Under the pieces are notes generated by a model. The model was not told the DNA's origin and did not search any database. It was given only the letters and a program-made list of their open reading frames with translations. Below are positions 4,095 to 57,370 of a stretch of 63,567 nt of DNA, piece by piece (within the stretch, counting starts at the first letter, position 1; each line of letters starts with the position of its first letter). Origin of the DNA: Kiritimatiellia bacterium. Its GTDB lineage: Bacteria; Verrucomicrobiota; Kiritimatiellia; CAIQIC01; Lenti-01. The DNA is taken from NCBI GenBank assembly GCA_017540905.1, contig JAFYAC010000094.1:1-63567 (forward strand), in the 5' to 3' direction. The position numbers and the translations under genes were made by a program.

Positions 4095-4125
4095 AGCAAA
4101 TTAAGAAAAAGTGTAGTCGCAAGCC

Positions 4126-4197
4126 GGGGAGGGCCCGGCTTCGTCCGGGCCTGGTTTTTCGTCCTTGCACACGGCCGCGACAAAGCGCGGCCCTCCC
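4126..4197 (+). repeat. Interspersed hairpin repeat, family H1 (GGAGGGCCCGGCTTCGTCCGGGCC ... GGCCGCGACAAAGCGCGGCCCTCCC), short variant
   Basis: The same termini occur at 7926-8023, 37797-37894, 25365-25460(-) and 50625-50720(-), with a partial copy at 22923-22952. Confidence 0.8.
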
Positions 4198-4984: not shown

Positions 4985-5028
4985 GCGCCCCCTGCCCCAT
5001 CCCGCCCCCCCCGAACCTACCGGTCCAT

Positions 5029-5122
5029 GCCTGCGGCGGCAAACACGGAGGGACTGGCGGAAGGAGGCACGGAGGTCTTTTTGCGGGCAGTTTGTTGGAG
5101 GGGCATCCGCGCCCCGAAAACG
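5029..5122 (+). repeat. Half-copy (single arm) of foldback family FB2
   Basis: CCTGCGGCGGCAAACACGGAGGG...GGAAGGAGGCACGGAG...GTTTGTTGGAGG...CCCCGAAAACGC aligns with the left arm of the element at 41625-41925. Confidence 0.7.
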
Positions 5123-5342
5123 CTCACAAACCATTTTTGGGGATATCCAAGATGGGTCACGTCGGGGCTCCCCCTTCCCCTTGGCGTCCGGGGGGAGCAC
5201 TTGCGATACCAAGGAAAAATCGGTCTTTTCCTGCGGTTTTTCCGTATTCTCACAGGTGGAAGTCGCCGACGTGGGGGAGGGAAAACCGCCGCTCCGAGGC
5301 ATGGCGGCGGGCTTGCCATGAGGGGGCGGCGGGGGTAGGGTC

Positions 5343-7520: not shown

Positions 7521-7875
7521 AGAGCGGTTCAAGAAAAGCGTGACGCAACCCGGGAGGCCGACCTGGGAGGTGCGGCTTTCAGCCGCGCAATGGACTTGGA
7601 CAAGCGGCGCGGCAGGATGCCGCACCCCCGGAAGTGCCGCAAGACCTCCTGAAAAAGCATCGCGCGACTTCCGGAGGTGCGGCTTCCAGCCGCGCCGTTG
7701 GAGGGGAGATTATGGGAAAACACGGGCAATTTCAGCCTGTTTTCCATCTCCATGCGCCCCGCGGGCGGGACGCCCGCGCCCCCAGAAATCACCCGCTTTT
7801 CCATCCGTTTTTCCTCACTGTCCGCATCCGCCAAGGCGCGGCTGAAAGCCGCACCTCCCAGGTCGGTTTCCCAGG
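7521..7875 (+). repeat. Composite interspersed element E, copy 1 (about 355 bp)
   Basis: It is collinear with 25482-25893. Shared blocks are CCTGGGAGGTGCGGCTT(T/C)CAGCCGCGC, GCAGGATGCCGCACCCCCGGAAGTG, GCATCGCGCGACTTCCGGAGGTGCGGCTTCCAGCCGCGCCG.TGGAGGGGAGATTATGG, CGCGGGCGGGACGCCCGCGCCCCCAGA and GGCGCGGCTGAAAGCCGCACCTCCCAGGTCGGTTT. Confidence 0.85.
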
Positions 7876-7925
7876 TTCCGCCACGGTCTTTATTCGGCCG
7901 CGCCCAAAAAGAGCAGCCGCATTCC

Positions 7926-8023
7926 GGGAGGGCCCGGCTTCGTCCGGGCCGCGACCACAGGGCGCTTCAGGGACATGCCTGAAACACCCTGGTCGCGCGG
8001 CCGCGACAAAGCGCGGCCCTCCC
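7926..8023 (+). repeat. Family H1 hairpin repeat, long variant
   Basis: GGGAGGGCCCGGCTTCGTCCGGGCC...CAGGGACATGCCTGAAAC...GGCCGCGACAAAGCGCGGCCCTCCC is close to the reverse complement of 25365-25460. Confidence 0.85.
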
Positions 8024-8128
8024 AAGACGGGCGCATTGTTTCGTGATTCTCTTTGGCGCTTCCCCACCGCGGACGCGCGGACGCGCGTCCCTCCCCGGGG
8101 AGAGCGCTTCCGGGGGCTGCATTGTTTC

Positions 8129-11301: not shown

Positions 11302-13422
11302 TTACGCTTCTTCGGCTTCGTCGTCCTTGTCGTGGCGACTGCTGCCGTAATATTTCTTCGTCGTGTAGTGGTAGTAGTAATAGTAGTCGTCGCGCATGAT
11401 GTTGATGTTGTTGAGGACCGCGCCGAGCAGGTGCCCGCCGGCGTTCTCGACCATGCGCTTCGCGCGCAGCGAAATGATCTTCGGGTACTTGCGGTACTGC
11501 ACCACCAGCAGCACGCCGTCCACTTCGCCCGCCAGGATCGACGCGTCGGTCACGCCCAGGATCGGCGGGGAGTCGAAGAAGATGTAGTCGTACTGGTCGC
11601 GGATCTCGTCGATCACATTCCGCAGGCGCTGGTTGTTCAGGATGCCGATGACGCCGCGGCGCAGGCGGCCGGACGGGACCATCCAGAGGTTCGGGACGCC
11701 GGTCTCGACCGTGTAGTCGGAAATCTTGCCCTCGCCGACGAGGACGTTGACCAGGCCCTTGCGGTTGGAGATGCCCACCATCTTGTGCTGCACCGGGCGG
11801 CGCAGGTCGCTGTCGATGACCATCACCCGGCTGCCCTGCTCGGCGCAGACGTAGGCGAGGTTGAAGAGGGTCGTGGACTTGCCTTCGCCCACGCCGCCGG
11901 AGATGACCGCGAAGACCTTCTTGCCGCCTTCCTTGGCCAGCATGTCCAGGCTCGTGCGCAGCCCGCGGTAGGCTTCGCCCTGGCCGCTGGACTGCCCGGC
12001 CTCGGTCAGCGGCCGCGACTGCTGCGGGATGACCGCCACCACGGAGAGGCCGAGGTACTTTTCGACTTCGTCCACCGTCTTCAGCGACACGTCGAGGTAT
12101 TCGACGAAGAACGCCAGGCCGATGCCCGCGAGGATGCCGAGGATCACGCTCAGCACGATGTTCAGCACCACGAGCGGGCTCGACGGCCGGTTCGGCGGCT
12201 CCGCCTCTTCGACCACGTTCACCAGCGTCTGCGGCACCTCCACCTCGATCCCGGCCTGCGCGATGCGGGCGCGGAGCGCGCCCAGGATGGTGCGCTGGAT
12301 GTCCACGTTGCGCTCCGCGCGGCTGAAGGGCAGGTAGTCGGTCCCTTCGCTGGCGATTTCCTCTTCCTTGATCGTGTTGAGTTCCTGCTCGAGCGATTCG
12401 AATTTCTTGCGCGCCACCTCGTATTCCGTGCGCAACCCGGCCTTGAGGCCTTCCAGCGCGCCGTCGCGTTGGCGCGTCAGTTCGGCGACCGCCGCCTTCA
12501 GGCGCAGGATTTCGGGGTGGTTTTCGCCCAGGACGCCTTCGTCCAGCGCGTTCTGCAGGAGGACCTGGCTCTTGACCAGTTCCTGCCGCAGGTTCATCAG
12601 CATGGAGTCGGGGACGAGGTAGGCGGCCGCTTCCATCAGCTTGTCGCCCTCCAGGTTCTCCAGGGCGTCGAGGCGGGTCTTGCGGACGATCATGTCCACG
12701 CGCGCGACGCTCAGCTCGCTCTGGAGGGAATTGAGTCGGGTGGTGTCGATGTTGACGCTGTTGTCGCCGTGGCCGACGCGCGTGATGCCCTTCTCCTGGC
12801 GGATGCGCTCGAGTTCGTTTTCGGCCTCTTCGACCTTGTCCTGCTGCTTGCGGACTTCGTTGCCGATCGCGTCGATGGCCCGCTGCATCTCGCGGCGCTT
12901 GTTCTGGAGGCGGCGGGCGCGGTAGACGCCGGCGATTTCGTTGGCGATCTCGGCGGAGAGGGTGCGGTCCTTGGTGGTCGCCGAGATGTTCATCAGGGTG
13001 GTGTCGCGGTCCTGCTCCACGCGGATGCTCCGCTGGAGGAGCTGGAGCGTCGTGTCCGCGTCCAGCGGCGCCTTGTCGTCGTTGAGTTCCGCGCCCCAGA
13101 CCTGCTGGAGGCGGAGGTTGCGGATGACTTCCTGGAGGACGGGTCGGGACGTCATGACCTTTTCCTGCGTCAGCAGGAAGAACGGGTCGTACCCGCCCAC
13201 GCGGCCGCGGTTCTGCTCGTAGTAGAAGGGGTCGACGTCGAGCCGGTCCTGGCGCACTTCGAGCTGGGTGGTGGCGGTGTACCGCTTCGGCATCATCAGG
13301 GTGTACGACGTGCCGGCCACGATGGTCATCAGGGCGACGGCGAGGATGACTTCCTTGCGGTCGCGGATCACGCGCCAGTAGTCGAGGAATTGCAGTGCCG
13401 AATTCGAAGTGTCTTCTGCCAT
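11302..13422 (-). CDS. Polysaccharide co-polymerase / tyrosine autokinase (Wzc/GumC/EpsG-like)
   Basis: It has an N-terminal Wzz chain-length domain, a long coiled coil, a second transmembrane helix, the P-loop ISGGVGEGKSTT, and a Tyr-rich tail (DDYYYYYHYTTKKYY). Confidence 0.9.
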   Translation of the reverse strand: MAEDTSNSALQFLDYWRVIRDRKEVILAVALMTIVAGTSYTLMMPKRYTATTQLEVRQDRLDVDPFYYEQNRGRVGGYDPFFLLTQEKVMTSRPVLQEVIRNLRLQQVWGAELNDDKAPLDADTTLQLLQRSIRVEQDRDTTLMNISATTKDRTLSAEIANEIAGVYRARRLQNKRREMQRAIDAIGNEVRKQQDKVEEAENELERIRQEKGITRVGHGDNSVNIDTTRLNSLQSELSVARVDMIVRKTRLDALENLEGDKLMEAAAYLVPDSMLMNLRQELVKSQVLLQNALDEGVLGENHPEILRLKAAVAELTRQRDGALEGLKAGLRTEYEVARKKFESLEQELNTIKEEEIASEGTDYLPFSRAERNVDIQRTILGALRARIAQAGIEVEVPQTLVNVVEEAEPPNRPSSPLVVLNIVLSVILGILAGIGLAFFVEYLDVSLKTVDEVEKYLGLSVVAVIPQQSRPLTEAGQSSGQGEAYRGLRTSLDMLAKEGGKKVFAVISGGVGEGKSTTLFNLAYVCAEQGSRVMVIDSDLRRPVQHKMVGISNRKGLVNVLVGEGKISDYTVETGVPNLWMVPSGRLRRGVIGILNNQRLRNVIDEIRDQYDYIFFDSPPILGVTDASILAGEVDGVLLVVQYRKYPKIISLRAKRMVENAGGHLLGAVLNNINIMRDDYYYYYHYTTKKYYGSSRHDKDDEAEEA

Positions 13423-18432: not shown

Positions 18433-18806
18433 CGGATACCCTTTCTGCAACATGTCTTTCCACTCTACCACACCCCCTGCCCCCCGCGCTCCACAAATTT
18501 GCCTCTTCTGGGTTTTTCCCCGAAGCGCCCCCACACCCCGCCCCCGCCTTCCAAACATCTCCCACCCCCTCCTCCTCCACATCAATGAGATTACAGAAAA
18601 TACAGTAATTGTTTTCTATTTTTCATCCTTCTTCCCACCATGAAAACTATTCCCCCATCCCCTCCCCCTCCCGTTTCCATCATTGCCGACCGCGTTGCCC
18701 GTGGGCACGGCTACTGCCTCTTCACCTTTTTCCCCCGGAAACTGCACGAATCGCCCCCGCTTTCCTTGTTCCCCCTAATCCCCCCTCTAATCAATTTCCC
18801 CCCTGA

Positions 18807-22866: not shown

Positions 22867-23061
22867 GGGAGGTACGTGACCATGGGAGGTCGCAGGAACA
22901 TGACAGGCCCCATCATTCGCCCGGCCGCGACGAAGCGCGGCCCTCCCGAAACGGCATCCGGCAGCGAATGCCGGACGCCCTACAATTCGCCCCCCCCCGT
23001 TGCAGGGGAACAGGACAAGGAGTATCCTGCGCGCCAAGATGCGAATTCAGGAGAAAGCAGG

Positions 23062-25294: not shown

Positions 25295-25364
25295 GGCGCT
25301 TTCCGGGAGTTTCCCAAGCGCTTGCGGTCGCGCGGAAGCGCGACCCTCCCGGTGCCCTTCCAAG

Positions 25365-25460
25365 GGGAGGGCCGCGCTTTGTCGCGGCCGCGCGAACGGG
25401 GGGGCAGGCATGTCCCTGAAGCGCCCTGTGGAGACGGCCCGGACGAAGCCGGGCCCTCCC
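25365..25460 (-). repeat. Family H1 hairpin repeat (inverted orientation)
   Basis: GGGGAGGGCCGCGCTTTGTCGCGGCC...GGCATGTCCCTGAAGCGCCCTGTGG...GGCCCGGACGAAGCCGGGCCCTCCC. Confidence 0.85.
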
Positions 25461-25481: not shown

Positions 25482-25893
25482 GAGCGGCTGAAGAAACACC
25501 AGGGCTGAACCTGGGATACGGTCCTGGGAGGTGCGGCTTCCAGCCGCGCCATCGACTTGGACATGCGGCGCCGCAGGATGCCGCACCCCCGGAAGTGACG
25601 CAAGACCTTTTGAGCAAGCATCGCGCGACTTCCGGAGGTGCGGCTTCCAGCCGCGCCGCTGGAGGGGAGATTATGGAAGACATGGACATTTTCGGCAGGA
25701 TTGCCATCTCCATGCAACCCGCGGGCGGGACGCCCGCGCCCCCAGAATCCACCCGCTTTCCCAGCCGCCGCCCGGCTGGGGCGGGGCGCCTTGAAAGAGT
25801 TGTCCCGAGTTGTCCAGGTTGTTTCTTTTCCTCCCGCGCTCCATCCGTCGGGGCGCGGCTGAAAGCCGCACCTCCCAGGTCGGTTTTCCGGGG
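25482..25893 (+). repeat. Composite interspersed element E, copy 2 (about 412 bp)
   Basis: See 7521-7875: the block order and orientation are the same. Both copies lie between convergent gene 3' ends. Confidence 0.85.
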
Positions 25894-25952
25894 GCAGCCA
25901 TGGTTTTTCTTAAGGCGCCCTATATGGCCTGAGCCCTCGCGCGTGCGCCCCG

Positions 25953-27722: not shown

Positions 27723-27874
27723 GACTGAACTCCTGATGTATACAAAAACGCAGGGACTATATCCCTTTCCGCCCCCCCGCGCAAGCAAAAACCTGCAAAC
27801 CTGCACGCCGCGCGGCCCGCGGGGCGCGTTTCGCGGTTGACAACGCCCGCTCCGCTTCGTAGCGTTGGGGGCGA

Positions 27875-27975
27875 ATCGGTCGCTAGGGGTGTCCTTGAGG
27901 AAAGGGCTGAGAGCTCCCGTGCGGGAGCAACCCTCGGAACCTGTCGGGATCATGCCTGCGTAGGGAAAGCGGACT
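27875..27975 (+). promoter_or_regulatory. TPP (THI-box) riboswitch
   Basis: CTAGGGGTGTCC...GGGCTGAGAG...ACCCTCGGAACCTGTCGGGATCATGCCTGCGTAGGGAAAGCGG matches the conserved THI-element core (CUGAGA, ACCCU..GAACCUG, AUGCC.GCGUAGGGAA). It lies about 65 nt upstream of thiM. Confidence 0.9.
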
Positions 27976-28040
27976 TCGCCTCTCCCCCACCCCGTCTTCC
28001 CGGCCGCTCCCGCCCGCGGCGGCCGCACGGAGAACCGTCC

Positions 28041-28883
28041 ATGTCCCATCCGACCGAATCCGCCCCCGCCGCCGCCCGCGCGGCCGCCCTGGCCGCCCGC
28101 CTGCGCGCCGAATCGCCCCTCGTCGTCAACATCACCAACTACGTCGCGATGAACTTCGCCGCCAACGTGCTGCTGGCCGCCGGCGCCTCCCCCGTCATGG
28201 CCCACGCCCCCGAGGAAATCGGCGAAATGGCCGCCATCGCCGGCACCCTGAGCATCAACTTCGGCACCCTCGACGCGGCCTGGGTCAAGGCGATGGTCCA
28301 GGCCGGCCTCGCGGCGCAACGCGCGGGCAAGCCCGTCGTGTTCGACCCCGTCGGCGCCGGCGCGACCACCTACCGCACCGGTACCGCGCACGCCTTCCTG
28401 GAAACCTTCCCCGTGGCCGTCCTCCGTGCCAATTCCTCCGAAATCCTGGCCCTGTCCGACGCCCCCGCCGCCGCCGCGACCAAGGGCGTGGACGCCACCG
28501 ACCCCGTCGATGCCGCCATCCCCGCCGCCGCCGCCCTCGCCCGGAAGCACCGTTGCGCCGTGGCCGTGTCCGGCGCCGTCGACGCCGTCACCGACGGCAC
28601 CCGCCTGCTCCGCGTCGCCGGCGGCTCGCCGCTCATGCCGCGCATCACGGCCACCGGCTGCTCGCTGACCGCGCTCACGGGCGCCTGCTGCGCGCTCGCC
28701 CCCGGCGACCCGCTGCTCGCCGCCGCCACCGCCATGGCCATCTTCAAGGTGGCCGCCGAAACCGCCGCGCCGGCCGCCCGCGGTCCCGGCTCCATGGCCG
28801 TCGCGTTCCTCGACGCCCTCCACTCGCTCGACCCCGCCGGCGTCGCCACATCCGGCCGCATCCGCGAAGAGGCCCTCCCGTGA
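28041..28883 (+). CDS. thiM: Hydroxyethylthiazole kinase
   Basis: PLVVNITNYVAMNFAANVLLAAGASPVMAH, VFDPVGAGAT, LRANSSEI and RITATGCSLTALTGA are ThiM signatures. I use the ATG at 28041. Confidence 0.9.
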   Translation: MSHPTESAPAAARAAALAARLRAESPLVVNITNYVAMNFAANVLLAAGASPVMAHAPEEIGEMAAIAGTLSINFGTLDAAWVKAMVQAGLAAQRAGKPVVFDPVGAGATTYRTGTAHAFLETFPVAVLRANSSEILALSDAPAAAATKGVDATDPVDAAIPAAAALARKHRCAVAVSGAVDAVTDGTRLLRVAGGSPLMPRITATGCSLTALTGACCALAPGDPLLAAATAMAIFKVAAETAAPAARGPGSMAVAFLDALHSLDPAGVATSGRIREEALP

Positions 28884-30687: not shown

Positions 30688-30762
30688 CATGGCCGCGCGG
30701 AAGCGCGCCCCGATGCGCTCTCCACGGGGACGCGCTTCCGCGCGTCCGCAGTGGAAAAGGTG
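30688..30762 (-). repeat. Family C repeat (inverted), interrupted at AAAAGGTG by the FB1 element
   Basis: ...GCGCTCTCCACGGGGACGCGCTTCCGCGCGTCCGCAGTGGAAAAGGTG. The sequence resumes as AAAAGGTGGCGAC at 31205. Confidence 0.75.
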
Positions 30763-31204
30763 GGTTCTTCGGGAATTATAGTGGACGGGGCGGATGGCCG
30801 AGAGATCGTGGAGAGATATTTGGAGAATGGAAAGCGCGCCAGCATTCGTCCCCCCCTCCGAGAGGGGGGTGCCGCCCGAAGGAAGATGGCTCATGGATGC
30901 AAGTGCGGAGCGGAAGGAAAGGGCGGCGGGGGGAGTACTGCGGGGAGCCGTCGATGCAGGCTTTCTCATGGTCCATCTGCGGAGGGATTGATTCTTTGGG
31001 TGCGGGATGAAGTCGTGCTTGCCGCGACGGCCGACCGCAGTACTCCCCCCGTCGCGGCCCCTGCCGCTTGTCTTTTGCCATGCATCCGCCTTCCATTCAT
31101 GGCCGCGCCACCCCCCTCTCGGAAGGGGGAGTGTCCTGTCACCCTCCTTGCGCCTTGCATTCGTGGGATTCCGGAGGTGGTTCCACTATAATCCCCGAAG
31201 AACC
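30763..31204. mobile_element. Foldback MITE-like element FB1 copy a (442 bp) with 22/23-nt terminal inverted repeats and an 8-bp target-site duplication
   Basis: The left end is GGTTCTTCGGGAATTATAGTGGA. The reverse complement of the right end is GGTTCTTCGGGGATTATAGTGGA. AAAAGGTG flanks the element at 30755-30762 and 31205-31212. The internal arms each carry CCCCCCTCCGAGAGGGGGGTG and GGGGGGAGTACTGCGG in inverted orientation. Confidence 0.75.
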
Positions 31205-31550
31205 AAAAGGTGGCGACGCCCCCCGCCGTCGTCCGCGAAAGAGAGCCCTCCTCCATGTATATCGTGAGATTAAAGAAAATACACGGAAAACACTCATTTC
31301 TCATGCATCCATCCCTTCTTGAAAACACACACCGCCGGCGCAGAGGCGTCGCCACATTGCTTGGCCCCACCCAAGCCAATATACCGTGCTGGCCATGAAT
31401 CATCGCACGACCAACGCAAAGCCGCGGCGGCCGGGGACGGCCGACCTCCGGGCGGCCCGTCATGGGCAATCCTTTTGCACGGCCCGCCCGGAGGTCGGGC
31501 CCTACCAGAAGAAGCACCCGACAAGAAATCGCAAGGTTTGCAGCAGACAA

Positions 31551-31650
31551 ATCCATTGTCCCGCCACCTTTTCCACCATGGACGCGCAGAAGCGCGTCCC
31601 TCCCCGTGGAGAGCGCGCGGGAGGGGCACGCTTCCGCGCGACCTTGTGGG
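31551..31650 (+). repeat. Family C repeat (partial)
   Basis: ATCCATTGTCCCGCCACCTTTTCCACCATGGACGCGCAGAAGCGCGTCCCTCCCCGTGGAGAGCGC...GGGGCACGCTTCCGCGCGACC. Confidence 0.75.
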
Positions 31651-31803
31651 AAGGAAATGTCAGGGAAGCTACAGAAAAACAGAAACCGCTCCAGCCATTG
31701 GGAAGCGATTTGCCTTCATGCCGCTGCCATTTCGCACGGCGGGCAGGGGACTGCCCGCCCTACCCGCGGCCGGCAAACACGAATGTTTTGGCTGAACGCT
31801 GCA

Positions 31804-37538: not shown

Positions 37539-37796
37539 GCCTGACCTCTTCCTTTTCCGTCGGCCCGCACCGCGCGGACCCTTCAAATCTCGTTTGTTGA
37601 CGGTTCGACTCTACCCCATCCCCCCCCCCAATGCAACGCCCCACCCCCGCCCCCCGGTAAACCGTTTTCCCTCCCCTCCCGCCATGCCGTGAGATTACAG
37701 AAAATGCGAGCATTTCCCTCCCATCGCGCCAACGTTGTCCGCCTGAACATTTTGCGGGCCGCCCAAGGCAAAGCGTCATGCCGTCCGGGGGGAATG

Positions 37797-37894
37797 GAGG
37801 GCCCGGCTTCGTCCGGGCCGTGCCCATTGGGCGCCACGGGAACACGGCAGAGACGGGCTTCCCCGCACGGCCGCGACAAAGCGCGCCCCTCCCC
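37797..37894 (+). repeat. Family H1 hairpin repeat
   Basis: GGAGGGCCCGGCTTCGTCCGGGCC...GGCCGCGACAAAGCGCGCCCCTCCCC. Confidence 0.8.
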
Positions 37895-39093: not shown

Positions 39094-41337
39094 TCAGGGG
39101 AACACGACCCTGGCCCGGTACACGGCCGTCCCTTCCGCCGGCTTGTCGCCGGTCGGCCGCACCCCCACCGCGCGCGACTGCATCCCGATCCACGGGTCCA
39201 CCGCCACCTGCACGTACGGCTCCTCCGGCGGCCCCTTCACCCCGGTTCCCTGCATCGCCGCCCAGCCCGAGTCGTCGAAGTCCGCCTCCACGGCCTCCCC
39301 GGGCGGATCGATGGCGAACTTCCAGTCCGCCTCCGTCCCGGCGAACCAGTCCCCCTTGCGCATCGCGAGGAGCACCCAGTCCGGATACGCCTGCAGCGCC
39401 GTGCGGATGGCCACCAAATGCTCCCCCGCCGGCGGCTTGACCGCCGCGACCGCCGCCTCCGCAGGATCCCCGGCCCGCAGCACGCACTCCCCGTCGATGA
39501 AGAGCTCCGCCGGCATGTTCGCCCAGAGCAGCGCCGTGACGCTCTCCCCGGCCCGTTCCGACCGCAGCACCTCCGCCGCCTCCCGCACCTTCGGGTCGGC
39601 GTCCTCCAGGAACGGCGCCAGCGTCCCGGCCTCCCGCGACCCGGCGATTGCCTCGCCGTAGAGCGCCAGCCGCAGCTCCGCCATCCGCCGCGCGCCGGGC
39701 GTCCAGCCCGGGCCCTCGGTGGCGAGCCGCCGCGCGAACTCGTCGCGCGCCCCCGTCCAGTCGCCGAAGCGCTCCGCGTTCCAGGCGGCGGCCATGGCGT
39801 TGAAGGGATCCAGGCGCGGGTCGGTCGGCGTCTTCCGGTATCCCGGCGCGAGCCGGGCCGAGTCCGCCCGCGCCGGCTCCTTCAGGTAGTACCACGCCGT
39901 GCTCTCGAAATACGCGTGCGAAACATTGTCCGGCCCCCGCTCGAACTCCATGTCCAGCGACTGCGCGAACACCGACGGGTCGGCCGCGTGCACCCGGTAC
40001 TGCACCGTGCGGAACGGCTCCTTGGCGAGCAGCCCGTGCGTCGGCGCGGCCATCACGTTCTGGTAGTACCAGCCGCCGTTGAAGTAATCCTCCAGCCCCG
40101 TCCCCCGCCAGCCCGGCGCCGTTTCCGCGTCCTTGCGGATCGTCTCGTCGCCCTCCAGCGCCCAGTACGACCCGTCGAGCGTGCACACCGCGAGCAGGCA
40201 CCCCACGTACTTCCCTTCCCCCCGCGCGTGCAGGACCGGGTGCGGCGACCCGACCTCCTTGAGCCCGCTCCGCTTCCAGGCCGCGTGGAAGCGGCCCAGC
40301 CCCTTGAGCTCGCGCCGCCCGACCGCCTCCCGCACCGCGCGCACGCGCACCGGGACCTTCCCGTACTTCCCGGAATCCAGCCGCACCTCCATCCCGTCCG
40401 CGAACGGCATCGGGAACGCGCAGAACAGCTCCTCCCCCTCCATCCCGAAGTACAGCGACTTCGCCCGCACCCTCCGCCACGGCATCCCGCACAAATCCCC
40501 GAGCGGCGCCCACACGCTCTCCTCCTGCGCGCCGCCGTACCGGACGCCCACCCGCATCTCGCGGAGCAGCGCATCCCGTTCCCCTTCCGGCACCAACCCC
40601 CACTCCGGCTCGAACCCCAGCCGCCGCACCACCCCGCGCCCCTCCAACTCCATCACCGGCGATTCCGCCGACAGCACCGCCTCCACCGTCTCCGTCCCCG
40701 CGCCCGCGGGAAAACCCTCCGACCAGACCTCCCGCAGCCGTGCGAGCGCCGCCCGGTCCCGGTCCGGCAACGGCCACGCGAAGGATTCCACCTCCGTCCC
40801 CGGCGGCAGCTTCGTTTCCGAGAGCTGGAAATACGGCTTGGCGCCCTCGGGCCCGGCCTCGCATTCCACGCGCAGGCTCTTCGCGTAGGGCATCGGCACG
40901 AACGAATGCCAGCAGTAGTTCGCGTACTCCGCCAGCGGCGCCGCGAACGGCTCCATCCCGCCCCCGCACCACTCCTTCACATCGCCCCCGAACCTCGCCT
41001 CCGCCTCCCCGTCGAAGAAGAACCGGAACCGGAACGGCAACCCGTCCTTCGCGCCCGTGAACCAGAACCGCGTCAGGACCCCGGGCCCCTGGAGGTCGGC
41101 GACGACCTTCCACCCCGGCTCCGCCGAATCCCGGAGGAACGTCCCCCAGTCGTCGTTCCCGCCCGTGCGGTCCCAAGACGAATGCATCACCGTGTCCCGC
41201 CCGTCCATGCGCGCGATGGACAGCGGATCCGCCAACCGTTCCGCCTCCGTCGCCACCGACACCGGCGCCCGGCCGCACCCCGCCGCGAACGCCATCCCCC
41301 CGGCCACCACCAACAACTCGAACAACAACTTCTTCAT
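39094..41337 (-). CDS. DUF2961 / glycoside hydrolase family 172-like lipoprotein with extra C-terminal domains
   Basis: The lipobox is MAFAAGC. HSSWDRTGGNDDWGTF, GPGVLTRFWFTG, YWALEGDE and FNGGWYYQ are DUF2961 hallmarks. Confidence 0.8.
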   Translation of the reverse strand: MKKLLFELLVVAGGMAFAAGCGRAPVSVATEAERLADPLSIARMDGRDTVMHSSWDRTGGNDDWGTFLRDSAEPGWKVVADLQGPGVLTRFWFTGAKDGLPFRFRFFFDGEAEARFGGDVKEWCGGGMEPFAAPLAEYANYCWHSFVPMPYAKSLRVECEAGPEGAKPYFQLSETKLPPGTEVESFAWPLPDRDRAALARLREVWSEGFPAGAGTETVEAVLSAESPVMELEGRGVVRRLGFEPEWGLVPEGERDALLREMRVGVRYGGAQEESVWAPLGDLCGMPWRRVRAKSLYFGMEGEELFCAFPMPFADGMEVRLDSGKYGKVPVRVRAVREAVGRRELKGLGRFHAAWKRSGLKEVGSPHPVLHARGEGKYVGCLLAVCTLDGSYWALEGDETIRKDAETAPGWRGTGLEDYFNGGWYYQNVMAAPTHGLLAKEPFRTVQYRVHAADPSVFAQSLDMEFERGPDNVSHAYFESTAWYYLKEPARADSARLAPGYRKTPTDPRLDPFNAMAAAWNAERFGDWTGARDEFARRLATEGPGWTPGARRMAELRLALYGEAIAGSREAGTLAPFLEDADPKVREAAEVLRSERAGESVTALLWANMPAELFIDGECVLRAGDPAEAAVAAVKPPAGEHLVAIRTALQAYPDWVLLAMRKGDWFAGTEADWKFAIDPPGEAVEADFDDSGWAAMQGTGVKGPPEEPYVQVAVDPWIGMQSRAVGVRPTGDKPAEGTAVYRARVVFP

Positions 41338-41412: not shown

Positions 41413-41506
41413 TTTTTCCAACCATTGGAAAAAAGTTTTCCAACCATTGGAAAAATCCCCGCAGTTTTTCCAACCATTGGAAACTTTTTTTCCAATCATT
41501 GGAAAA
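41413..41506. promoter_or_regulatory. Array of four 19-bp palindromes TTTTCCAA-CCA-TTGGAAAA (candidate operator array) upstream of the GH172 gene
   Basis: The copies are at 41413-41434, 41436-41455, 41465-41483 and 41485-41506; the fourth reads CCAATCATTGG. Core-to-core spacing is 22, 30 and 22 bp. The array lies 76-169 nt upstream of the ATG at 41337. Confidence 0.6.
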
Positions 41507-41590
41507 CCTCTTCCGCCCCCCATCAATCCATGCCATGAGATTACAGAAAAATCAATATTTTCCAACGGCATTCCAACACGTTCACCACCA

Positions 41591-41618
41591 TGAAAAAAGC
41601 CGCGCGAACCGCGCGGCC
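41591..41618 (-). terminator. Rho-independent terminator (minus strand)
   Basis: The minus strand reads GCCGCGCGGTTCGCGCGGC followed by TTTTTT. It abuts the left target-site duplication of the FB2 element. Confidence 0.55.
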
Positions 41619-41624
41619 CATCCC

Positions 41625-41925
41625 GAATGCTGATCAGATAAGGTTTTTCCCTTGAGGGAGGGGCCTGCGGTGCCAAACACGGAGGGGAAGGAGGCACGGA
41701 GACACGGAGAGTTTTTGGATGGAGCGTTTGTTGGAGGAGACTTCGCTCCCGGAAAACGCCGGCCAAACGCGTGGGAGGGACGTTTTTGGAAGTGCGAAGC
41801 TCCTCCCTGGAAAATCTCCGTGTCTCCTTCCTCCGCGCGCTCCGTGTTTTGCGCCGCAGGCAGAGGAAAAAGGAGAGCGGGCGGGGTTGTTCCATGGGTG
41901 GGCGGAGCTTGTCTGATCAGCATTC
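41625..41925. mobile_element. Foldback MITE-like element FB2 (301 bp) with perfect 14-nt termini and an 11-bp target-site duplication
   Basis: It starts GAATGCTGATCAGA and ends TCTGATCAGCATTC. CGGCCCATCCC flanks it at 41614-41624 and 41926-41936. The internal arms are homologous in inverted orientation (CAAACACGGAGG / GGAAGGAGGCACGGAG). Confidence 0.8.
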
Positions 41926-42177
41926 CGGCCCATCCCCCCCCGCCCCCCTTTGGCCCGTCAGGTTTCCAGCCGCCGATGCCGAAGGCGCGGCAGACCTCGC
42001 CGATCGCCGTGCGAAAGGGGACGCACCACGATGCCAAGACGGAAACTGGGCGCGGCTGAAAGCCGCACCTCCCAAAAAGCGGATACGCCATTTCTTGAAC
42101 CGCTGGAAATCGCCGGAAAACCCCGTTTTTTCCATAATCTCACGCGGCCCTGGGACGTGGGTTCCTGACGCGCCGGA

Positions 42178-42495
42178 TCAGCGGGAGGGGGTGTCGAAGA
42201 AGGCTTCTCCGGCGTCCAGAAGGGCGTGGCCGGCGAGCGTGGTGAAGTACCAGAGGCGGGGGATGGCGTCCGCGGCGACGGCGGAAGGGGGGAGCGGGAC
42301 GAAGGTGCCGCCGCGGAATTCGTGGGCGGCCAGGTGGCCGGCGCGGACGAGGCGCAGGAGGGCGGCTCCGAGGTCGGCGGGGGCGACGGGGGCGCCTTGC
42401 GGGGCGGATTGGACGTCGTCGCGGATGGAGGCGGCGTTCTCCCAGTCGTCGCAGGCGGCATTCAGCACCAGCAGGTCCAGGTTGTGCGGGTCCAT
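42178..42495 (-). CDS. Hypothetical protein (105 aa)
   Basis: The product begins [28 protein letters not shown] and ends [28 protein letters not shown]3 bias is good and I recognise no family. It is the C-terminal end of shadow track ORF 42178..43302. Confidence 0.55.
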
Positions 42496-42516
42496 GGAGG
42501 TCCTTTCTCCGGACAC

Positions 42517-42569: not shown

Positions 42570-44678
42570 TCAGGCCTTGAGGCCCTTGTCGTGCATGGCG
42601 GCCTTGCGGGAGAGGCGGACTTTGCCGTTGTCTTCGACGCTCAGGCACTTGACCCAGATCTCTTCGCCCATCTTGACGACGTCTTCGGTGCGGTTGACGC
42701 GGAAGTCCGCCAGCTCGCTGATGTGGACGAGGCCTTCCTGCCCGGGCAGGAATTCGACGAAGCAGCCGAAGTCCTTCACGCCCGTGACCTTGCCGCGGTA
42801 GATCTTGTTGACCTCGGGCTCGGCGGTGAGGGCCTGGACTTCGCGCAGGGCGGCGTCGAGGTTGACCTTGTTGTTCGAGAAGATGGAAACCTTGCCGTCG
42901 TCCTCGATGTCGATCTGGGTGCCGGTGGTCTCGGTGATGTGGCGGATGTTCTTGCCGCCGGGGCCGATCAGGGCGCCGATCTTTTCGGGGTTGATGTTGA
43001 CGACGACGATCCGCGGGGCGTACGGGGAGAGGTCCGCGCGCGGGGCCGGGATGGTGGCTTCGATCTTGTCGAGGATCTTCAGGCGGGCCTGGTAGGCGCG
43101 GTCGAAGGCGCCGGCGACGAGGTCCCACGCGAGGCCGCGGATCTTCAGGTCCACCTGGAAGCCGGTGATGCCCTTGCGGGTGCCGGCGACCTTGAAGTCC
43201 ATGTCGCCGCAGTGGTCTTCGGCGCCGATGATGTCGGTCAGCAGGACGGGGTCCTTGCCTTCGCCGGTGACCAGGCCGATGGAGATGCCCGCGACGGGGC
43301 ACTTGATCGGCACGCCGGCGTCCATCAGCGCGAGGGTGCCCACGCAGATGGAGGCCATGGAGGAGGAGCCGTTGGAGCCCATGATCTCGGAGACGAGGCG
43401 GATGGAGTACGGGTAGTCCTCGGGGACGACCTGCCGGATGGAGCGCTCGGCAAGGGCGCCGTGGCCGATTTCGCGGCGGTTGAGGCCGCCCAGGCGCTTG
43501 ACTTCGCCCGTGGAGTACGGCGGGAAGTTGTAGTGCAGGGTGAAGCGCTTCTTGATGGGGCCGCCGGTGAGGCCGTCCATTTCCTGCTCGTCCTGGCCGG
43601 TGCCGAGGGTGCAGATGCCCATGGCCTGGGTTTCGCCGCGGGAGAAGAGGGCGCTGCCGTGCACGCGCGGGAGGATGGAGACTTCGGCGCTGAGCGGGCG
43701 GAGTTCGTCGGTGGCGCGGCCGTCCATGCGTTTGTGCTTTTCGAGGACGCCGTTGCGGACGAGCTCGATCTCGATGCAGTCGAAGAGCTTCTTGAAGAGG
43801 TTCTCGGTCATGACTTCTTCGCCGTAGGCTTCGACCATCTTGGGGAAGGCGGCGTCGAAGACGGCGGCCATCTTCTGCTGGCGTTCCTGCTTCTTGACGG
43901 TGAAGAGGGCGGCTTCGAGGTCGGCGGCGCAGATTTCGCGCAGCTTGGCGAGCTGGCCTTCGTCGGGGAGGGTCTCGGTGAAGACTTTCTTGGGCAGGCC
44001 CATCTTGGCGCGCAGTTCGTCCTGCGCTTCGCAGATCTTCTCGACGGCTTCGTGGCCGAACTTCATGGCGGCGACCATGTCGGCGTTGGAGATTTCCTTG
44101 GCGGAGCCTTCGATCATCATGGGCAGGTCGTGGCGGCCGACGTAGACGAGGTCGAGGTCGCTGTCCTTCATCTGCGACTGGTCGGGGTTGAGCACGAACT
44201 GGCCGTTGATGCGGCCGACGCGGACGGCGCCGATCGGGCCGAGGAAGGGCAGTTCGCTGAGCTGGAGGGCGCAGCTGGCGGCGTTGATGGAGAGGATGTC
44301 GCTCTCGTTCTGGCCGTCGGCGGTGATCAGCATGTTGTTGATTTGGACGTCGTTGAAGAAGCCTTCCGCGAAGAGCGGGCGGATGGGGCGGTCGGTGACG
44401 CGGGCGGTGAGGATTTCCTTTTCGGTGGGGCGGCCTTCGCGCTTGAAGTAGCCGCCGGGGAAGCGGCCGGCCGCGTAGAAACGCTCGCGGTACTCGACCT
44501 GGAGCGGGAAGAAATCGATGCCCTCGCGGGGCTTGCTGGTGTTGGTGACGGCCGAGAAGACGATGGTCTCGCCCAGCTGGCAGGTGGCCTGCCCGGCGGC
44601 CTGGCGGGCGAGGAGCCCGGTCTCGAACGTCATGGTCTTGCTCCCGAGGGGGATGCTGACGGATGTGGTGTTTCTCAT
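42570..44678 (-). CDS. pnp: Polyribonucleotide nucleotidyltransferase (PNPase)
   Basis: [74 protein letters not shown] and the KH and S1 domains ([15 protein letters not shown]) are PNPase signatures. I use the ATG at 44678. Confidence 0.95.
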
Positions 44679-44903
44679 TTCTCTTTCCTTCTTCTTGCTT
44701 GCTTTCTTGCTACTGCTTCTGACTTGCGGAAATGGTGATCGAAAACGCGTTGCCACCCGGACACGGCGGAACCACGCGGCGCGTCGCGGCGCGTGGATGG
44801 GAAAAGCTTTTTGCGAAACTCCGCCCGTCAACAGCCGCGGCAGGGGCCGCCAGCGTGCCGGGGGCGGGGCGGGCGCGGGGTGCGCCGGCCCCGTTGGGGC
44901 GCA

Positions 44904-45588: not shown

Positions 45589-46794
45589 ATGCCGCCCATG
45601 ACCCAAGCTCCCCTTCCAGACATCCCGCCCGCACCCGCCGGAACTTCCGGCGGCGCCTTGGTCGTCTCCTGGTACACCGTGCAGGACGAATCCAGCGGCG
45701 GGCGCCGCCGCATCGCCGAACTCCTCCGCGCCCTGGCCCCGGGGGTGCGCCTCCTCCAGCCCGCCCCGGCCCATCCCGGATTTCCCGGCGCCGGGTTCCC
45801 CCGCGACTTCGGCCGCCGCAAGATCGGCATCAACTGGGGGATGTTCAATTTCCGCTGGCCCGCCAACCGCCGCCTGGCCCGCCGCCTCGCCGCCGAATGG
45901 CGCCCCTCCGTCATCGTGTCCACCTCCATCTGGTGCCATGCCGCGTTCGAAGGGCTCGGCATCCCGCGCATCCTCGACGCGCAGAACGTCGACGCCGAAA
46001 CCATCGCCGAGCGCTTCGGCCTCCGGCATCCCTTCACCCGCCTCGTGGCCCGCGCCGAGCGCCGCGCCCTCGCAGAATCGGAACTCGTGTTCTGCTGCTC
46101 CGCCATCGACGCGGACCGCTTCCGCGGCGCCTACGGCGTGCCGGCGGAAAAGCTCCTGGTCGTGCCCAACGGCGTCACCATACCCGGCACCCCGCCCGAG
46201 CCCTCGCCCGAGGCCCTGGCCATGAAAGCGCGCGACGCCGGCAAGACCATCCTCTACTTCATGGGCAAGACCGACTACGCCCCCAACGCCGAAGCCATGC
46301 GCTGGATCGCCTCCACCCTGCTCCCCGAACTCGACCGCCGCGCCCCCGGGCGCTTCGCCTGCTGGATCAGCGGCACGGGCCCCGGCCTTCCGCCCGGGGC
46401 GGACCACCCTTCCGTGCGCTGGCTCGGGCGGGTGCCGTCGGTCCCCCCCTGGCTGGCGGCGGCCGACATCGCGATCGCGCCCGTGGAGAGCGGCGGCGGC
46501 ACCCGCCTCAAGATCCTCGAGTTCCTGGGCGCCGGCAAAGCCCTCGTGGCCACCCCGAAGGCCGCCGAAGGCATCGACCTCCAACCCGGCACCGACGCCG
46601 TCCTCGCGCCCCTCGCCGGGTTCGCCGACGCCGTCCTCGCGCTCGCCGCCGATCCGGACCGCGCGGCGGCGCTGGCCCGTTCCGGCCGCGCCAGGATGCT
46701 TTCCTCCTACACGTGGGAATCGGTCCACGCCCGCTGGCGCGCCGCCCTGGCCCCCTACCTCCGGGCCACTTCGCCGGGGAGCCCCGCGCCATGA
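45589..46794 (+). CDS. Glycosyltransferase, GT4/GT1 (GT-B fold) family
   Basis: The C-terminal half carries YFMGKTDYAPNAEAM...AADIAIAPVESGGGTRLKILEFLGAGKALVATPKAAEG, an EX7E-like motif. The start is ATG at 45589 or 45598. Confidence 0.8.
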   Translation: MPPMTQAPLPDIPPAPAGTSGGALVVSWYTVQDESSGGRRRIAELLRALAPGVRLLQPAPAHPGFPGAGFPRDFGRRKIGINWGMFNFRWPANRRLARRLAAEWRPSVIVSTSIWCHAAFEGLGIPRILDAQNVDAETIAERFGLRHPFTRLVARAERRALAESELVFCCSAIDADRFRGAYGVPAEKLLVVPNGVTIPGTPPEPSPEALAMKARDAGKTILYFMGKTDYAPNAEAMRWIASTLLPELDRRAPGRFACWISGTGPGLPPGADHPSVRWLGRVPSVPPWLAAADIAIAPVESGGGTRLKILEFLGAGKALVATPKAAEGIDLQPGTDAVLAPLAGFADAVLALAADPDRAAALARSGRARMLSSYTWESVHARWRAALAPYLRATSPGSPAP

Positions 46795-47375: not shown

Positions 47376-47381
47376 AACGCC

Positions 47382-47668
47382 ACGAATGCAAAGCGCATGG
47401 AAAGTACCAGTATTCTCCCCCCTCCGAGAGGGGGGTGGCGCGGCCATGACCGGGATGCCCATGCATCGCGAAAGACAAGTGACAGAGGCCGCGACGGGGG
47501 GAGTACTGCGGTCGGCCGTTGCGGCAAGCGAGCCTTTGCAGCAGCAACAAGCAAAACAAACCTTTTTCGGTTGGAGCGTGCGGAAGATTGCGTCAACGGC
47601 ATCCCGCAATACTCCCCCCGCCGCTGAAGCGGCACCCCCCTCTCGGAGGGGGGGAGTGCTGGCGCACG
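47382..47668. mobile_element. Foldback element FB1 copy b (about 287 bp; ends not precisely defined)
   Basis: The left arm is CACGAATGCAAAGCGC...CCCCCCTCCGAGAGGGGGGTGGCGCGGCCATG...GACGGGGGGAGTACTGCGGTCGGCCGT. The right arm carries CCGCAATACTCCCCCC...CACCCCCCTCTCGGAGGGGGGG in inverted orientation. Confidence 0.65.
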
Positions 47669-50218: not shown

Positions 50219-50530
50219 GCGGGGAAAAAACCATACCGCCTTTTTGGGCGAACACGATGGACAACCGGCAAAATTGTCCATGTTTCCCCATAGTCACCCA
50301 TCCATCGGCGCGGCTGTAAACCGCACATCCCAAAATGCGGATGCACGAGTACATCGTAAAGTCAAAACATTCGTATTGGCCGATTGCGGGTAGGGCGGGC
50401 AGTGCTCTGCCCGCCGTGCGAAAGGGGTGTGGCATGAATGCAAATCCATGCGCAAGACAGGCACACGGCGGCGAAGGGACTCGCCGCCCTACCCCGAAAA
50501 CATGCGAAAGAATGAACTTTACGCTGTACT

Positions 50531-50720
50531 GGAGCGGTTTCAGAAACAGTGTGGCCGCCGTCCATTGTGTCGCCACCTTTTCGTTCGCGGACGCGCAGAA
50601 GCGCGTCCCTCCCTGTGGAGAGCGCACGGCCGCGCTTCGTCGCGGCCGCGCGAACGGGGTGTTTCCGGCATGTTCTTGGAGCGCCCTTTGGCGACGGTCA
50701 GGACGGAGCCGGGCCCTCCC
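50531..50720. repeat. Family C (+) followed directly by family H1 (-) repeats
   Basis: GGAGCGGTTTCAGAAACAGTGTGGCCGCCGTCCATTGTGTCGCCACCTTTTCGTTCGCGGACGCGCAGAAGCGCGTCCCTCCCTGTGGAGAGCGC is followed by ...GGCCGCGCTTCGTCGCGGCC...GGACGGAGCCGGGCCCTCCC. Confidence 0.8.
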
Positions 50721-50842
50721 ATGGATACGGCTGCCCTTTTCATTGTTTGCCCTGGATCGGTTCAAGGACCGGCGCCTTCCTTCGCCATGACTGGCTCCGG
50801 CGGGCCGGGGCGACCCGCCTCCCCCATCCCCTCCGTTGCCCG

Positions 50843-56095: not shown

Positions 56096-56634
56096 CGCTC
56101 GTCTCCTCCGGCCCAGGGTTGCTCCGGCGGAAGGGCGCCCAGACCGGAAAAAGGGCGCGCTTCCGTTCGTGCGCAACTGGGGCCCTGAGAATGCCGGTAA
56201 AGACACGGAGGAAACGCGCCCGCAAGGGACGCGCCTCTCTCCGCAAACGGCCGTCGTTCACTCGAATTTCTCAGGTTCCAGTTGCACGGCACATCTTGCG
56301 AAAGATGCGGAAAACAGAATGTCCGACGCGGGCGACCGGCTGGGTGCCGGCCATCCATCGTCGCTTTCAGCTTATCCGCCTCCTCCGTGTCCGTCAAATG
56401 CATAATCCTTCCGTGTCGGTTCCGCGCCGGCGGCCGATTCCGCCGGGGGTTCCATATCCATACTCACCGGCCCGGGCGGAATCTGACGGAGTTTTTCCCG
56501 ATTGTGCAAAACGGGCCTGCGGAGCGGAGGCGCGGAAGTCCACATGGATCGCAAGCGGCGCTGGAGCGGTTCAAGTCATTCTGTGGCTTCCCTGCCGTTT
56601 CCCAACCACAAGGTCGCGCTTCCGCGCGACCGTT

Positions 56635-57180
56635 GCGCTCTCCACGGGGAGGGACGCGCTTCTGCGCGTCCGCGAAAGAAAAGGTGGCAACACAATGGAT
56701 GGCGGCCACACTATTTCTGAAAACGCTCTAGTGGAACCGTCTCCCGAATTCAGCAAATTCATGGACCAAGGAAGGCGCCAGGACCCGCCCCCCTCCGAGA
56801 GGGGGGTGGCGCGGCCATGGATGGAAGGCGGATGCATGGCAAAAGACAAGCGGCAAGGGCCGCGACGGGGGGAGTACTGCGGTCGGCCGTAGCGGCAAGC
56901 GCGACTCCGCACCGGCAACGAACGAATCAAGACTTTTGCGGATGGAGCAAGTGGACGCCTGCATCGACGGCCTCCCGCAGTACTCCCCCCGCCGCCCTTT
57001 CCTTCCGCTCCGCATTTGCAAGCCATAAGCCATCTTCCTCCGGGCGGCACCCCCCTCTCGGAGGGGGGCGAATGCTCGCGCACACCCCATTCCCTGAATA
57101 CGGCCCCCATCGTCCCAACCCCATCGTCGCAATCCACTATGGCGGGTTCAGAAATAGTGTTGCCTCAACCTTTTGTCCCG
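56635..57180. repeat. Composite palindrome: family C (-), FB1 copy c, family C-like (+)
   Basis: GCGCTCTCCACGGGGAGGGACGCGCTTCTGCGCGTCCGCGAAAGAAAAGGTGGCAACACAATGG...CTATTTCTGAAAACGCTCTAGTGGAACC is followed by the FB1 arms in the opposite order to copy a. The region ends in ...TCCACTATGGCGGGTTCAGAAATAGTGTTGCC. Confidence 0.75.
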
Positions 57181-57184
57181 TCCA

Positions 57185-57288
57185 GGCGTTTGTCCGGCGT
57201 TTTCCGGGTGCGAAGGCTTCTCCGACAAACGCCCCTTCCAAAACTCCTCCGTGCCTCCTTCCTCCGTTCCCTCCGTGTTTCGCGCCGC
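57185..57288 (-). repeat. Half-copy (single arm) of foldback family FB2
   Basis: GGCGTTTGTCCGGCGTTTTCCGGG...CTCCGTGCCTCCTTCC...CTCCGTGTTTCGCGCCGC is the reverse complement of the FB2 left arm. Confidence 0.7.
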
Positions 57289-57370
57289 GGGCCCGTTTCC
57301 CTGCGGCAACGCCTTGTCTGGTCGGCATTCCGGCGAGTCCCCCCGCCGCTGGGCGGATGGCGGGTTCCCC

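Follow-up and report, generated by a model that had tools for sequence, protein, structure and literature searches.

Several kinds of small dispersed DNA elements have been described that invite comparison with the locus studied here. MIC231 cassettes are non-autonomous derivatives of IS231, a member of the IS4 family; they are bounded by ends of this family and are presumably mobilised in trans. The IS4 subgroup itself is characterized by ends of the form -AATR--------WTW----, by direct repeats of 10-13 bp, and by a first nucleotide that is only loosely conserved (PMC2266710, Table 1 and text); the MIC231 cassettes of Bacillus cereus are among the references of the same paper. Classical miniature transposons (MITEs) often cluster and nest within one another (PMC10969869), and a term search of this MITE review found no IS4, Verrucomicrobia or Kiritimatiellae, just as a literature search combining Kiritimatiellae and MITE returned nothing relevant. 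Well-known examples, among them the Correia elements (CREE) of Neisseria, RUP and BOX of pneumococcus, and ERIC, are small, multi-copy, intergenic elements with terminal inverted repeats (TIRs) that form hairpins once transcribed and also occur nested. Finally, REPINs are inverted doublets of a conserved unit accompanied by decayed singlets; they are built of hairpin REP units, leave no target duplication and have a RAYT partner.

The window analysed here (the whole stretch of DNA, 63,567 nucleotides of contig JAFYAC010000094.1, with a GC content of about 69%) contains a foldback insert of 301 bp which is a real miniature transposon of uncultured rumen Kiritimatiellae (Table 1). It resembles the MIC231 cassettes in being non-autonomous and in having IS4-family ends, but these cassettes belong to the IS231 subgroup, have CAT ends, usually carry passenger genes, are not foldbacks and come from another phylum. 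With Correia, RUP, BOX and ERIC it shares small size, multiple copies, an intergenic location, a TIR hairpin and nesting; however, Correia and RUP duplicate TA, pointing to other transposase families, whereas the element described here duplicates 11 bp.

Table 1. Positions of the MITE, its parts and associated features in the window
Feature	Position	Strand	Remark
Full-length 301-bp foldback MITE	41625..41925	.	A end left, B end right
A-end terminal inverted repeat GAATGCTGATCAGATAAGG	41625..41643	+	IS4-subgroup end signature present
B-end terminal inverted repeat GAATGCTGATCAGACAAGC	41907..41925	-	From full-length copy alignment
A-arm conserved core GCCTGCGGTGCCAAACACGGAG...GGAGGCACGGAGACACGGAG, three CACGGAG heptads	41663..41711	+	Most conserved internal columns
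B-arm conserved core GCCTGCGGCGCAAAACACGGAGCGCGCGGAGGAAGGAGACACGGAG	41816..41861	-	Most conserved internal columns
Left copy of 11-bp target-site duplication CGGCCCATCCC	41614..41624	.	First bases part of terminator stem
Right copy of 11-bp target-site duplication CGGCCCATCCC	41926..41936	.	
Intrinsic-terminator-like hairpin GGGCCGCGCGGTTCGCGCGGCTT, then T run	41597..41619	-	Element at its upstream shoulder
105-aa ORF downstream of pnp, upstream of element on minus strand	42178..42495	-	
Half copy, A end, model positions 1-156, terminus GAATGCCGACCAGA kept	57175..57330	-	blastn, nhmmer
Internal A-arm fragment, model positions 35-149, without terminus	5025..5137	+	blastn, nhmmer
REP-like family	4107-4151, 7534-7593, 7831-8107, 22907-22947, 25326-25460		
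REP-like family	31551-31695, 37796-37854, 50528-50740, 56560-56700		

The element begins with GAATGCTGATCAGA (41625-41638) and ends with the exact reverse complement of this 14-mer (41912-41925), so that its inverted termini are perfect, as claimed in a first-pass annotation of this DNA. When up to two mismatches were allowed, GAATGCTGATCAGA matched three times in the window against 0.13 matches expected, the third match being the terminus of a half copy (57317-57330). The interior is an imperfect palindrome made of two homologous arms in inverted orientation, again in agreement with the earlier description: the segments 41663-41694 and 41830-41861 are 81% complementary, and the segments 41698-41714 and 41811-41827 are 94% complementary. 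The whole element folds as one long hairpin (z = -9.5 for the DNA; z = -6.2 for the RNA including its flanks), and its size lies below the limit of about 500 bp that is applied to MITEs. The ORFs that overlap it, on both strands, are high-GC artefacts.

The two copies of the 11-mer CGGCCCATCCC touch both termini of the element, exactly where a duplication had first been noticed. A third exact copy of CGGCCCATCCC occurs at 45767, meaning that this GC-rich 11-mer is compositionally ordinary; the weight of the observation comes from the position of the repeat at both ends, and not from its rarity.

The element belongs to a family. A 16-mer of its core, searched against all species genomes, proved unspecific (at least 96 matches, mostly due to chance), but among the matches was one inverted pair in the MAG RGIG6649, which opened the family search. 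Alignment of this pair with the arms in the window revealed a core of about 46 nt common to all arms. A scan of 185,579 species genomes with the core motif matched only three rumen Kiritimatiellae MAGs, and the same scan of rumen metagenome contigs matched more than 120 stretches, which is a lower bound; the family was found only in a few rumen Kiritimatiellae MAGs and rumen metagenomes. A pattern of two termini spaced by 255-285 nt was of no use, as it gave only two chance matches (in a betaproteobacterium and in a Mycobacteriales MAG), and in viral contigs the terminus pattern matched only a phage coding region.

Among the matches listed, amounting to 0.88 Mb of loci, the full-length instances numbered 24, spread over about 18 distinct sites and 250-367 bp long (mostly 299-301 bp), besides many truncated arms; 91 ends in these loci had both terminus and core. 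In a global alignment of 13 full-length copies the mean pairwise identity was 76% (range 61-94%), and conservation ended exactly at GAATGC...GCATTC. The 13-nt tip was about 90% conserved among full-length copies, and the best-conserved parts of the alignment were the termini and the two cores. The A and B arms show a fixed difference, in that the distance between terminus and core is 42 nt in the former and 68 nt in the latter; the spacer of the B-arm core is CGCGC. An nhmmer profile built on the 13 copies matched the element of the window over model positions 1-300 (E = 4e-99) and recognized exactly three family members in the window, i.e., the full element, the half copy and the internal fragment.

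At 14 of the roughly 18 sites, direct repeats of 10-11 bp border the element, a duplication being counted when at least 9 of 11 flank positions matched or when a perfect 10-bp repeat was present. Four of the 18 sites showed no recognisable duplication, and at four others the duplication was perfect over 11 positions: in the window (CGGCCCATCCC), in L199 (GACTTTGCCCA), in L231 (CGGGCAGTCCC) and in L304 (GGGACAAGCCC). In cross-paired controls, where the left flank of one copy was compared with the right flank of another, only 6 of 182 pairs reached 9/11. The duplicated targets loosely fit the pattern sGG-N5/6-yCCC. The other copies do have flanking repeats of the same length, the absence of which the first-pass annotation had named as a refutation, and the initial reading of the insert as a non-autonomous TIR element with a target-site duplication is supported. 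These data already refute the explanation of a chance palindrome with coincidental flanking 11-mers, the probability of which is virtually nil: even though the 11-mer is rich in GC and recurs in the window, dozens of copies end at the same points and are flanked by repeats of equal length, and the number of termini observed in the window was attained by no shuffle of the window.

Three copies (L212, L231 and L241) are nested inside members of other repeat families. When these sites were rebuilt with a single copy of the direct repeat, they aligned across the junction with uninterrupted paralogous repeats, and for L212 and L231 the alignment was free of gaps. This is related-empty-site evidence of precise insertion. 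Empty sites of this related form were found for three copies of the family; for the site in the window itself, no empty allele was present among the identical contigs, the variants of the neighboring GH172 protein or the variants of the small protein encoded by the 105-aa ORF.

The target duplications also contradict another explanation, according to which the element would be a REPIN-like doublet of REP units moved by a RAYT (IS200/IS605-type) enzyme. The architecture is reminiscent of REPINs, in that a conserved unit is doubled in inverted orientation and also occurs as singlets, and the genome is full of REP-like hairpin repeats. However, the family makes 11-bp duplications while REPINs make none, the conserved core unit is not self-complementary and hence not itself a hairpin, the termini match IS4, and no RAYT gene was found among the 20 ORFs scanned; we regard a REPIN-like origin as extremely improbable.

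The REP-like family just mentioned is abundant in the window (Table 1) and consists of GGGAGGG plus a GC-rich hairpin with a TTCG or TTCC loop, whose stems vary between copies. The MITE copies of L212 and L241 are inserted within members of this family.

Comparison of the termini with those of insertion sequences pointed to IS4. The A-end repeat GAATGCTGATCAGATAAGG fits the subgroup signature, positions 2-5 reading AATG and positions 14-16 ATA, and the MITE agrees with all three hallmarks of the IS4 subgroup, namely the end signature, the 10-13 bp repeat and the relaxed first base. In some copies, 20 of the 21 terminal bases are those of the left end of E. coli IS4. The family members L099 and L205 end in GAATGCCGATCAGTTAAGGAT, and the 20-mer AATGCCGATCAGTTAAGGAT, located at the ends of both, is present in 3192 of 5426 complete E. 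coli genomes; in the two E. coli loci that we inspected, it marked one end of an element whose annotation reads IS4 family transposase, and the intact copy was flanked by the 11-bp duplication CAGCTAGACTG. As for the window, its terminus shares the 18 consecutive bases AATGCTGATCAGATAAGG with the left end of an IS4-like insertion sequence (L320/L321) assigned to a Phycisphaerae MAG. This insertion sequence is one of a set of IS4-like elements, with transposases 58-61% identical to E. coli InsG, that end in CAATGCTGATCAG(T/A)TAAGG. The five IS4-like proteins inspected from metagenomes all had CAATGC termini, in hosts of 46-60% GC.

The likeness to E. coli IS4 and its close relatives (which combine the domains Nterm_IS4 and DDE_Tnp_1) therefore comprises 18-20 identical bases at the left end, the end signature and the 11-bp duplication. 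It extends to the choice of target: for both kinds of element, insertions are frequent inside or next to GC-rich hairpins that are bordered by runs of A or T. Several IS4 copies among those inspected lie within hairpins of this kind, and similar targets were seen for the MITE in the window and in L198, L224 and L231. On the other hand, the MITE has no transposase gene, measures 301 bp compared to about 1.4 kb, and starts with G in all copies, where each of the nine IS4-like elements inspected has C. At either end it resembles the left end of IS4 (GATCAG) and not the right end (GTTCA), and its interior, a foldback with a conserved core, is unrelated to IS4, no homology between the element and the IS4 ends being found beyond about 20 nt. 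A possible homology of the core with IS4 subterminal DNA (CTGCGGC at a similar distance from the tip) was considered and judged unconvincing. Given that the two arms are mutually homologous and that both ends are of the left-end type, the element may have arisen when one IS end, together with the DNA next to it, was duplicated in inverted orientation.

We searched for a transposase by several routes. No IS4 transposase was detected by tblastn with E. coli InsG or by a profile of 111 IS4 transposases, the latter run against the six-frame translation of 1.15 Mb of related loci; the window was negative as well, and no transposase of any kind was found among the 20 larger ORFs of the window that were scanned or among the annotated genes of overlapping contigs. 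A few short stretches of the window outside the Pfam scan were covered by tblastn with the IS4 transposase and by the IS4 transposase profile, both with negative results. Likewise, the longer autonomous copy with the same termini, for which the first-pass annotation had proposed a search, did not emerge, as the window and the 1.15 Mb of related loci contained no autonomous IS4-like element with GAATGC termini (GAATGCYGATCAG). In the absence of an encoded DDE/YREK transposase (Nterm_IS4 plus DDE_Tnp_1), the element is not IS4 itself, but a candidate substrate of such an enzyme.

An IS630-family insertion sequence adjacent to a terminus in L205 was considered as a partner and discarded, because it has inverted repeats and a TA duplication of its own and is merely nested in the MITE arm. 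It occupies positions 11866-12998 of L205, at a duplicated TA, and is bounded by repeats TTGTKCTGGMCATAGATAAT; its ORF (11893-12978) encodes a DDE transposase of 361 aa.

Considering the end signature, the 11-bp duplication and the identity of 18-20 nt with IS4 left ends, we infer that the MITE is probably mobilised in trans by a DDE transposase of the IS4 subgroup, through an 11-bp staggered cut of the target. The first-pass annotation had left the mobilising enzyme unnamed; while its partner element indeed escaped our searches, the sequence evidence narrows the candidates to this subgroup. A different possibility is that the element is a genuine MITE, duplication included, but that its transposase lies outside the IS4 subgroup, in another or as yet undescribed family, and that the match to IS4 ends is convergent or a relic. 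Consistent with this, no IS4-type transposase occurred near any copy in the 1.15 Mb of loci, the first position distinguishes all copies from the IS4 elements inspected, and the interiors are unrelated. Still, we deem it unlikely, as it would have to account for 18-20 consecutive bases identical to genuine IS4 left ends and for a duplication of 11 bp, typical of the IS4 subgroup, whereas a variable first base is explicitly permitted by the published consensus (PMC2266710).

If an IS4-subgroup enzyme is indeed responsible, insertion would have proceeded as follows. The transposase, supplied in trans, would recognise the terminal repeats of about 19 bp, (G)AATGCYGATCAGNYAAGG, and would insert the element into target DNA whose two strands had been cleaved 11 bp apart; repair of these staggered ends would generate the duplication of CGGCCCATCCC. 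The chemistry might be of the cut-and-paste type, the analogy being Tn5 and Tn10, which belong to the same family. The target in the window was the upstream shoulder of the GC-rich terminator hairpin behind the 42178-42495 ORF, and the 3' UTR of any transcript of this ORF would now include a hairpin of 301 nt.

The minus strand of the window shows, in this order, rpsO, pnp (42570-44831), the 105-aa ORF, a spacer of 241 nt and the element; beyond the latter come the terminator-like hairpin with its T run, an array of palindromes and a gene of the GH172 family (39094-41337). The insertion thus lies between a small gene and a terminator, as originally proposed. The 11-bp duplication overlaps the terminator stem and regenerated it, leaving the terminator intact. 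Provided that ORF and terminator are functional, a transcript of 42178-42495 would cross the MITE before reaching the terminator. The 105-aa ORF had no Pfam match; it was called on 21 contigs, and a second cluster of ORFs at 90% identity, with 19 members, occupies the same post-pnp position in related strains.

The palindrome array upstream of the GH172 gene (41416-41504) comprises four 15-nt palindromes TTCCAAYCATTGGAA with a spacing of 22/30/22. It is the sole such site in the window (0.01 expected), and similar arrays recur in many related loci (L001, L097, L098, L100, L221, L233, L272 and L331-333); it may represent an operator array or another small repeat family. In addition, an intergenic motif TGAGATTACAGAAAA(T) occurs at 41536-41563 and, inverted, at 42115-42142, as well as near 18590, 31270 and 37695. 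The copy behind the small ORF is conserved in relatives, and the motif could be a promoter or some other regulatory signal.

Beside its mode of spreading, the element poses the question of its internal core, which is about as conserved as the termini. In both arms the core has the form GCCTGCGGCG-CAAACACGGAG-N5-GGAGGAAGGAGGCACGGAG; it contains the CACGGAG heptad two or three times and also GGAAGGAGG, which resembles a Shine-Dalgarno sequence. Part of this apparent conservation reflects ascertainment, since the scan pattern lay inside the core. Even so, such strong conservation is not explained by plain mobilisation in trans; transposases of the IS4 family are not known to need more than their ends of about 20 bp. 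Quite tentatively, and with the odds clearly against it, the core of about 46 nt might be a functional module, made either of subterminal sites for an unusual IS4-type transposase or of a host-exapted element, acting as RNA or binding protein, that the MITEs deliver into 3' UTRs beside terminators; in the latter case the family would constitute a dispersed regulatory system of rumen Kiritimatiellae.

A rival explanation would see the whole element as primarily a structure selected by the host, such as an mRNA-stabilising or processing hairpin in 3' UTRs or a protein-binding CACGGAG/GGAAGGAGG module, whose copies are kept or spread mainly for their function. The core is at least 90% conserved among subfamilies whose mean divergence is otherwise about 24%, the hairpin fold has a very high stability, and the copies are intergenic and located beside terminators. 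Against this, the sharp termini, the duplications and the nesting in other repeats show spread by transposition, and the many truncated or interrupted copies argue against strong selection on each copy; the ascertainment noted above further lowers the weight of the core. Moreover, the element matched no Rfam family: Rfam 15 returned only models of eukaryotic miRNA hairpins, at 18-31 bits versus thresholds of 45-137. Maintenance by the host as the main driver is therefore highly unlikely, and transposition by an IS4-type enzyme remains the reading that we favor.

Single-arm relatives had previously been placed at 5029-5122 (+) and 57185-57288 (-); both are real, although their extents differ slightly (Table 1). 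The half copy adjoins, inward of 57175, an unrelated repeat of about 400 bp. We conclude that single arms are decay products of full-length elements, generated by deletion or interruption, and not a separate, simpler form. How they arise is shown by the related strain L322, whose flanks are 93-97% identical to those of the window and which bears the same insertion with the B half deleted. L322 retains the A half and the repeat on the terminator side; a deletion of 271 nt has removed the B half, the second copy of the repeat and 72 nt of flank (L322 2700-2830 compared with window 41736-42007). In the remaining A arm of L322, CGCGCG stands in place of the GGGGAA of the window; such clustered changes suggest conversion between the arms.

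The repeat of about 400 bp next to the half copy contains CCCCCCTCCGAGAGGGGGG palindromes and is found in the window at 56726-57139, 30752-31208 and 47380-47624. It interrupts MITE arms at the metagenome loci L194, L210, L254 and L269, and looks like another mobile element landing in or next to the MITE.

Other sequences related to the locus were also compared. Ten contigs that encode the identical small protein, drawn from several samples, match the window at 99-100% identity and carry the same insertion, each of them either including the element or ending inside it. Variants of the GH172 protein led to L322 and to contigs too short to include the site. Variants of the small protein led to more distant relatives, in which pnp and the small ORF are retained and the sequence diverges 60 nt beyond the ORF. 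The DNA of the pnp region is 98.7% identical to a contig of the sheep-rumen MAG RGIG6649 (labelled Kiritimatiellae bacterium); this MAG lacks the 105-aa ORF, and its contig ends before the insertion site. Given the identity of 98.7% across pnp, the window belongs to the species of this MAG, and presence or absence of the ORF is a strain-level difference within one species. When window 42121-42509 was compared with L111 2898-3110, a REP-like repeat was seen to replace the ORF in RGIG6649, and only a downstream segment of 73 nt was common to both.

Some further features of the window were noted in passing. A dispersed repeat of about 370 nt is present in two copies (7547-7901 and 25508-25918), which are 78-91% identical in blocks, and positions 1-465 form a tandem repeat with two copies of a unit of about 237 nt, 90% identical. 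A TPP riboswitch (67.8 bits) was found at 27875-27984, at the 5' end of a long ORF (27837-28883) with a hydroxyethylthiazole kinase domain; the true start codon of this gene is probably downstream of the riboswitch.

Taken for what it is, the family is a new one of a well-known kind of mobile DNA, found in a little-studied uncultured lineage and with a parent family that can be inferred. The sequence of its ends and the length of its duplication link the MITE to the IS4 subgroup and turn this link into a testable prediction about an enzyme and its substrate; since some copies share 20 of 21 terminal bases with it, the E. coli IS4 transposase could even be tried. For annotation purposes, the element should be masked as a repeat, and where contigs break or strains differ at this locus, repeat dynamics are the appropriate reading. 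In these genomes, nested repeats make up a mosaic in the intergenic DNA, consistent with the MAGs being fragmented at such places. With the present results, the uncultured rumen lineage comprising the species of MAG RGIG6649 gains its first characterised family of mobile elements.
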